DNA from: a virus
UHGV virus genome: UHGV-1660473
Strand: one strand, 5' to 3'
Length of the DNA: 11,224 nt
Shown here: one piece after another, positions 3,733-3,894 of the stretch
Position numbering within the stretch: position 1 is the stretch's first letter
Layout of the letters: every line of letters begins with the position of its first letter
Made by a program: the position numbers and the translations under genes
Notes under the pieces: generated by a model
Seen by the model: the letters and a program-made list of their open reading frames with translations, nothing else
What the model was told of the DNA's origin: nothing
Databases searched by the model: none

Positions 3733-3894
3733 TCACATACAGCCTGCCAGCGCCTTATCTATTAACCCTCGTGCAATTTCATGCAGAGTTGGCGCTACTC
3801 CAATTCCTGATTTTTTACGCTGCTCTTCCTGAATTTTCTTTATCGCTTCCATTTGCTTCTCACTTATCAATACCGGCTTTACTGAAATAGCCAT
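3733..3894 (-). CDS. Small 53-aa ORF, possible ribbon-helix-helix (Arc/MetJ/CopG-like) DNA-binding protein
   Basis: Below the track's size cutoff. My minus-strand translation is MAISVKPVLISEKQMEAIKKIQEEQRKKSGIGVAPTLHEIARGLIDKALAGCM, preceded by an AAGGGGG SD-like run. The predicted beta-strand / helix / Gly turn / helix layout fits an RHH fold. It sits 16 nt upstream of the 3255..3716 gene. Confidence 0.4.
   Translation of the reverse strand: MAISVKPVLISEKQMEAIKKIQEEQRKKSGIGVAPTLHEIARGLIDKALAGCM

Follow-up and report, generated by a model that had tools for sequence, protein, structure and literature searches.

A small gene encoding a predicted ribbon-helix-helix protein heads the DNA-ejection operon of an enterobacterial phage satellite

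INTRODUCTION

The virus genome UHGV-1660473, an 11,224-nucleotide (nt) stretch of DNA referred to here in its whole length as the window, encodes a protein of 53 amino acids (aa), MAISVKPVLISEKQMEAIKKIQEEQRKKSGIGVAPTLHEIARGLIDKALAGCM, in an open reading frame (ORF) on its minus strand at positions 3733-3894 (start ATG 3894-3892, stop TGA 3735-3733). We find that this ORF is a real, conserved gene under purifying selection and that its promoter contains two operator-like palindromes, O1 and O2, in a layout that is conserved and specific to the small gene. The product is predicted to adopt a ribbon-helix-helix (RHH)-like fold. Our preferred reading, to which we assign a probability of about one in two, is that the small protein is an RHH autorepressor of the operon of phage ejection proteins that it heads, acting by binding O1 and O2.

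The initial annotation of this stretch, made from the sequence alone, proposed a 53-aa RHH protein with a Shine-Dalgarno sequence, missing from the ORF track and lying between a terminator/promoter region and an operon of ejection genes. The ORF is present exactly at that place. Its Shine-Dalgarno sequence, AAGGGGG (3905-3899 on the minus strand), ends 4 nt 5' of the ATG, and the ORF is indeed flanked by a terminator/promoter region and by P22-type ejection genes. The ORF is indeed shorter than the cut-offs commonly set on ORF length, yet an annotation exists: PGAP/RefSeq records it as the hypothetical protein WP_001018524.1.

RESULTS

The ORF is a conserved gene

Among the Enterobacterales, at least 12 genera have homologues of the small protein. 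A word-indexed search returned 44 close relatives, from Escherichia, Citrobacter, Serratia, Klebsiella and Salmonella, and an exhaustive profile search returned 60 clusters at 50% identity. A genome scan yielded 16 loci in 12 genera: Escherichia, Leclercia, Cedecea, Raoultella, Klebsiella, Chimaeribacter, Citrobacter, Rahnella, Pantoea, Lonsdalea, Serratia and Pectobacterium. The start codon, the Shine-Dalgarno sequence and the length of the ORF are kept in more than 20 loci; in the 20 related loci that we aligned, GGAGG or GGGGG counterparts of the Shine-Dalgarno sequence stand at an equal distance from the ATG.

Does selection act on the protein itself? Orthologues in 17 loci were compared with the window copy. 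Synonymous sites are changed at 65-100%, against 10-37% for non-synonymous sites, and dN/dS is 0.05-0.33 wherever it could be calculated. Because purifying selection is visible at the protein level amid saturated synonymous change, chance alone does not explain this reading frame. The initial annotation was prepared to give up the ORF if related elements did not conserve it; they conserve it, with purifying selection.

The module of promoter plus ORF is present in 499 of 5426 complete Escherichia coli genomes (~9%). Two E. coli alleles can be told apart: 246 records, at 99% identity or more, carry the first, and 239, at 90-95%, carry the second. In the example of the second allele that we examined (L032; related loci are numbered with the prefix L), the promoter is identical, the C-terminus of the protein differs (...AYTLTGRG), and the downstream genes, or cargo, are fewer: a gp20-like gene and an injection protein, without gp14 and gp7.

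Two palindromes are built into the promoter

The 130 nt 5' of the ORF were aligned from 20 loci. Read toward the gene, these have a rigid order: O2 (17 bp), 13 variable bp ending in xTGAtx, O1 (17 bp), TATAAT, 1-2 nt, a CTGT... element, the Shine-Dalgarno sequence and the ATG. The spacing from O2 through the 13 bp and O1 to TATAAT is invariant, while the bases between vary. In the window, both palindromes are on the minus strand, O2 (GTTTCATATTTTGCAAT) at 3964-3980 and the inverted repeat O1 (ATTGCGATTTGTGAAAC) at 3934-3950, with 30 bp between their centres. They are imperfect copies of a single palindrome whose symmetrised consensus is ATTTCATTAAATGAAAT. O1 keeps its position and sequence in 20 loci of ~12 genera, whereas its flanks diverge. 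The nearby palindromes to which attention had first been drawn thus exist, and they are phylogenetically footprinted in 20 loci.

O1 exactly occupies the 17-bp spacer of the promoter. On its 3' side is a -10 hexamer of perfect consensus, TATAAT (3928-3933, minus strand), which is exact in 16 of the 20 related loci and lies at a fixed distance from O1. On its 5' side, 17 bp from the -10, is ATGAAT (3951-3956, minus strand), a weak -35-like hexamer that matches TTGACA at three of six positions and would serve as the -35 element; the xTGAtx hexamer occupies the same position in most related loci. A simple sigma-70 scan of the window reported no promoter at the small ORF because the -35 is weak, and the promoter was assigned from conservation across loci. 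From the promoter geometry, O1 is centred near -21, which would be the position of a repressor site.

Where else do such palindromes occur? We built a position weight matrix (PWM) from the O1/O2 sites; O1 in the window scores 17.2 and O2 scores 19.5. In the window, and likewise in island L001 (25 kb), no site other than O1 and O2 scores 12 or more. In 349 kb of loci, ~55 matches score at least 13, nearly all of them promoter pairs. The O1/O2 pair always co-occurs with the small gene as first or second ORF. In a Citrobacter locus (L018) the pair lies 785 nt 5' of the ORF, ahead of an inserted 183-aa gene of the same operon: the pair has moved, yet it still heads the same operon. That the small gene is tied to this promoter whatever the cargo speaks for the autorepressor reading.

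An intrinsic terminator, a hairpin with a U-tract identified by a terminator scan and RNA folding, lies at 3987-4031 on the minus strand. Its folding energy is -29.4 kcal/mol (z -7.4), and none of 200 shuffled sequences is equally stable. We conclude that it closes the transcription unit of the satellite primase and insulates the small-ORF promoter. The purine-rich 5' flank of the hairpin pairs with the U-tract, so the terminator may be active in both directions.

Several related loci (L006, L013-L017, L020, L022, L025 and L026) carry CGATC(A/G)AA repeats, with one or two GATC Dam sites, 5-25 nt 5' of O2. GATC also often overlaps the -35-like hexamer in related loci. Neither the repeats nor GATC elements are found at this place in the E. 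coli window.

A LexA-box-like element overlaps the likely start of transcription

Directly 3' of the -10 hexamer begins another palindrome, AACTGTTGTTTTATACAGTT (3908-3927, minus strand), which covers the likely transcription start. Its core, CTGT-N8-ACAG (3910-3925), occurs once in the 11.2-kb window, against 0.14 occurrences expected by chance. The E. coli LexA box has the consensus TACTGTATATATATACAGTA; the element matches it at 14 of 20 positions and, as a CTGT-N8-ACAG palindrome overlapping a promoter, qualifies by sequence as a LexA box.

The canonical spacing is found in eight of the 20 compared loci, among them the E. coli window, Serratia L003-5, L020, L021 and L024; outside E. coli it occurs in Serratia, Lonsdalea and two Pantoea loci. 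In the Serratia loci, CTGT and ACAG are kept and the centre is variable, as expected for a LexA site. Judged on these sequences, SOS control of the ejection operon in the window is plausible. We found no relevant paper in a literature search on SOS or LexA control in phage satellites.

The product has a predicted RHH-like fold

With an alignment of 37 sequences (identity down to 30%), AlphaFold2 (AF2) modelled the protein with a predicted local distance difference test score (pLDDT) of 91.6, and all five models scored 85-92. An alignment of 17 sequences gave the same picture of the fold at a pLDDT of 85.8. In the model, residues 1-11 are extended and are followed by a helix (12-28), a loop of 8 residues and a second helix (37-52). 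The loop contains the near-invariant residues S29, G32 and P35, and position 36 is Ser or Thr in most family members. The predicted monomer thus has the beta-alpha-alpha topology of an RHH domain, an N-terminal strand with two helices packed at the RHH angle. The extended N-terminus is compatible with an intersubunit ribbon and is no proof of one. All of the top structural matches of the model are DNA-binding domains.

These results agree with the strand, two helices and Gly turn of the initial annotation, which had counted the absence of an RHH-like prediction against itself. Its further claim of an RHH protein is supported, with caveats. An RHH-like fold is well supported by the model, but homology to any named RHH family is not established by sequence: no PDB sequence match to any RHH protein was found, nor a match to the profile of any curated RHH family (RHH_1, Arc, TraM etc.). 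The protein is predicted to represent an uncharacterised RHH family, for which Pfam, PHROG and NCBIfam contain no model. When the residues of the strand were compared by eye with the operator half-sites, no clean pattern of covariation emerged.

The small gene heads interchangeable cargo in a phage satellite

The window lies within an island integrated at tRNA-Thr beside proA. In order, the island carries an integrase, an AlpA-type helix-turn-helix (HTH) gene, AntA, DUF4222, Ash, several small ORFs, a TOPRIM/DUF927 primase, the small ORF, the ejection genes, and PerC and others; this is the layout of a satellite like P4 or the phage-inducible chromosomal islands (PICIs). The primase gene (919 aa, 4479-7238) ends its unit 5' of the terminator, and nearly all related loci likewise have a primase homologue 5' of the small ORF. 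The small gene is the first gene of an accessory operon downstream of this primase. An accessory region downstream of pri has been described in PICIs, but with unrelated genes (Tai, PMC11364771).

The remaining genes of the operon, all on the minus strand, encode relatives of P22 ejection proteins. The second gene (3255-3716) begins 16 nt after the stop codon of the small ORF and encodes a DUF2824 protein resembling the P22 gp14 head/ejection assembly protein (PF11039, E 1e-61; PHROG 651). It is followed by genes for a P22 gp7-like DNA ejection protein (P22_gp7; 2584-3261; PF25688, E 7e-73) and for a P22 gp20-like ejection protein (Inj_translocase; 1265-2584; PF16928, E 4e-22). Positions 1-1268 encode the C-terminal part, with a lytic transglycosylase domain, of a gp16-like ejection protein (annotated by PGAP in the identical island L001, CDS 7349-10069), whose gene extends beyond the edge of the window.

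Elsewhere the cargo is different. Serratia and the second E. coli variant have gp20 plus a gp16-like gene. Internal virion proteins with a lytic transglycosylase (SLT) domain (PHROGs 1044, 992, 2013 and 7694) are found in Leclercia, Cedecea, Raoultella, Klebsiella and Pectobacterium, and baseplate-hub-like proteins in Rahnella and K. michiganensis. L010 and the Chimaeribacter locus L017 encode a protein of 108-111 aa followed by a tape-measure protein of 990-1136 aa; the Pantoea loci L020, L024 and L025 have a similar layout of 108-109-aa and 858-1188-aa genes, known from gene lengths. In the contexts where the downstream genes are identifiable, the cargo always belongs to the phage genome-delivery apparatus. 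Across cargo types the small protein remains 60-85% identical, and O1 and O2 are also kept. Since the protein and O1/O2 are kept to this degree while the cargo switches, conservation of the small protein tracks the promoter and not the cargo.

Three further features of these islands deserve mention. The first is the satellite family itself, with its interchangeable DNA-delivery cassettes (window 1-3716; L003, L006, L010, L012-L026 and L032); a literature search found no description of satellites carrying ejection or tape-measure genes. The second is a conserved protein of 107-111 aa directly 3' of the small ORF in L010, L017, L020, L022 and L024-L026. It matches PHROG 19131, of unknown function, in L010 and L017, the two loci that were scanned, and in these two the long gene 3' of it was confirmed as tape-measure; the 107-111-aa protein might be an analogue of a tape-measure chaperone. 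The third is a set of TGTTGGTTCA iterons, three direct and three inverted, at 4340-4455, just 3' of the primase gene, which also occur in the Serratia loci and are probably the replication origin of the satellite. An 83-aa ORF (4161-4412, minus strand) that overlaps them matches no family and is absent from the PGAP annotation.

Divergent relatives occur in prophages

Divergent homologues (~45% identity, some with C-terminal extensions) are present in podovirus-type prophages that have a T7-type portal, a GP7 capsid and Bbp16/19. There the homologue sits within the structural operon, between an internal virion protein and an SLT internal virion protein. The 110-nt gap upstream of it (L009 7186-7296; L027 9891-10000) contains a perfect hairpin, CTTTCCTCCTG-N9-CAGGAGGAAAG, whose 3' arm includes the Shine-Dalgarno sequence of the homologue; this hairpin may serve as a translational control or as a terminator.

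In BUCT708, a related Stenotrophomonas phage that has been isolated, these two structural genes directly adjoin each other, with no small ORF or hairpin insertion between them. Because these genes can lie side by side with nothing between, the small gene in phages is a dispensable insertion and not a core structural gene. A tblastn search of 50,697 phage records with the small protein and with its phage-borne homologue gave no match.

DISCUSSION

How might a protein of 53 residues control the operon that it heads? In the mechanism that we propose, the small protein would dimerise through its N-terminal strand, VKPVLIS, and a dimer of dimers would bind the two 17-bp palindromes, whose half-site centres are ~10 bp apart, as in the Arc and Mnt operators. 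Since the spacer that separates the weak -35 from the perfect -10 is taken up by O1, binding there would exclude RNA polymerase. The protein would then repress its own operon in a negative feedback loop like those of Arc, Mnt, CopG and omega, and levels of the co-transcribed P22-type ejection proteins (gp14-, gp7-, gp20- and gp16-like) would be kept low and buffered. In this lineage the LexA box directly 3' of the -10 would act as a second lock. The SOS response, which also induces resident helper prophages, would release this lock and allow the operon to be expressed. Dimer formation, binding to O1 and O2, the sign of regulation and LexA control are steps that we infer.

Several observations weigh against this autorepressor reading. 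Foldseek searches of the PDB gave only non-significant matches (E > 4), the best being an RHH-like plant TCP domain. None of the 37 family members has a Pfam match at E <= 10, and searches of PHROG, NCBIfam, PADLOC and PDB sequences with the ORF and the 37 members gave nothing meaningful. The residues presumed to form the strand (K-P-V-L-L-S, in which Pro is near-invariant) are unusually hydrophobic, so few polar residues are left for reading bases. The loop between helices A and B (~8 residues) is longer than the classic G-x-S/T turn and nearer to that of TraM. No O1/O2-like sites were found within 20 kb around the prophage homologues; the small protein can therefore exist without these operators. 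Ten of the 20 loci have CTG-N9-CAG in place of the LexA core, one base short, and should not bind LexA, so SOS control does not extend to every copy of the module. Finally, palindromes of 17 bp suit dimers of HTH proteins just as well, and another satellite, helper or host factor could for this reason bind O1/O2.

This last point leads to an alternative that we consider unlikely: the small protein may be a DNA-binding RHH regulator that acts in trans, perhaps interfering with promoters of the helper phage or working at a different promoter of the satellite, while O1/O2 are bound by a different factor, such as the AlpA or PerC-type protein of the satellite or a helper-phage or host protein. The predicted fold would suit such a role, the islands do carry an AlpA-like HTH protein and PerC as further regulators, and the phage-borne homologues manage without O1/O2 nearby. 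Against it, in each island examined the O1/O2 pair is found at this promoter only and always with the small gene, its linkage to any other gene is looser, and no alternative target motif was found.

Could the protein instead form an RHH-like dimer that does not bind DNA, and serve the ejection or tape-measure proteins as a chaperone, as a partner in assembly or as a minor component of the virion? The gene is directly 5' of DNA-delivery genes in every context with identifiable downstream genes, the prophage copy is embedded in a structural operon, and the putative strand is hydrophobic, not polar. Yet the cargo families are structurally unrelated, and the protein remains 60-85% identical across them and tracks the promoter. 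BUCT708 lacks the small ORF between the same two genes, so it is dispensable for assembly there, and the structural matches to DNA-binding domains also point away from this role. We hold it to be distinctly improbable.

The initial annotation had also mentioned antitoxins. That the small protein is the RHH-type antitoxin of a type II toxin-antitoxin pair (the ParD, CcdA, RelB or MazE7 class) is very improbable and largely refuted by context: no locus has a toxin-like gene 3' of it, the neighbours being virion or ejection proteins, the 53 aa end with helix B and leave no C-terminal toxin-binding extension, and neither PADLOC nor Pfam gave an antitoxin match. Hardly credible at all is the idea that the frame is open by chance, within a 5' leader that functions as DNA or RNA alone; the ORF is short (53 codons) and has no protein-family match, but we reject a spurious ORF on the strong purifying selection, and the kept start, Shine-Dalgarno sequence and length, the confident AF2 fold and the lack of any Rfam family in the window all point the same way.

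How does the small protein compare with known RHH regulators? In function it would resemble Arc/Mnt, CopG and omega, and by sequence or architecture it is a member of none of them. The suggestion that it is of the Arc/Mnt type did not hold: we detected no sequence similarity to the Arc/Mnt family of the P22 immI region, no PF03869 match and no control of an ant promoter. Helix A (~17 residues) and the inter-helix loop (~8) are both longer than in Arc, the gene lies 5' of satellite ejection genes and not in an ant-control region, and the operators are unrelated in sequence. Against CopG (pMV158), hhalign aligned 16 columns only, insignificantly, and there is no profile match; CopG and omega (pSM19035) serve plasmid copy control or partition, whereas the small gene belongs to a satellite accessory operon.

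In predicted structure its nearest counterpart is the N-terminal domain of TraM, a long-helix variant of the RHH fold. An hhalign comparison with F TraM covered 54 columns in the expected register, but with a P of 0.015 and a probability of 3%; identity to TraM (F/pED208) is 13%. The small protein lacks the C-terminal tetramerisation and TraD-binding domain of TraM, no conjugation genes are nearby, and the GANTC-type sites of TraM (sbmA and related) are unlike the ATTTCA-N5-TGAAAT found here. We therefore do not place it with this relaxosome accessory protein, having found neither the C-terminal domain nor a tra context.

In one respect the arrangement is like that of LexA-controlled accessory promoters in temperate phages and in satellites, such as tum of coliphage 186: a CTGT-N8-ACAG box in a mobile element lies across the point where transcription of a small leading gene would begin. 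As with tum, a box at the start of the small first gene would tie its expression to the SOS response. Unlike tum, the product here has a predicted RHH fold and is not a homologue of an antirepressor, and by sequence the box is canonical in some lineages only.

Taken alone, the small protein would be one more small RHH regulator; its interest comes from its position. The module, present in ~9% of complete E. coli genomes, marks the head of a variable DNA-injection cassette inside a satellite. More unusual than the regulator is what stands behind it, a family of satellites with interchangeable genome-injection cassettes. Knowing the regulator and its operators would give a direct experimental handle on the timing of, and the reason for, the expression of ejection or tape-measure proteins by satellites. 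Tentatively, and as a rather doubtful extension of these findings, we suggest that the RHH gene, the two-operator promoter and, in some lineages, the SOS box may form a portable, self-limiting platform for expressing stolen DNA-delivery proteins, timed to the induction of helper prophages. Such a platform would be used by a whole family of primase-bearing satellites of Enterobacterales, with P22 ejection proteins, SLT internal virion proteins, tape-measure proteins or baseplate hubs as its cargoes. If this is true, it would be a satellite strategy so far undescribed, one that supplies or poisons the genome-injection machinery and not the capsid or packaging.
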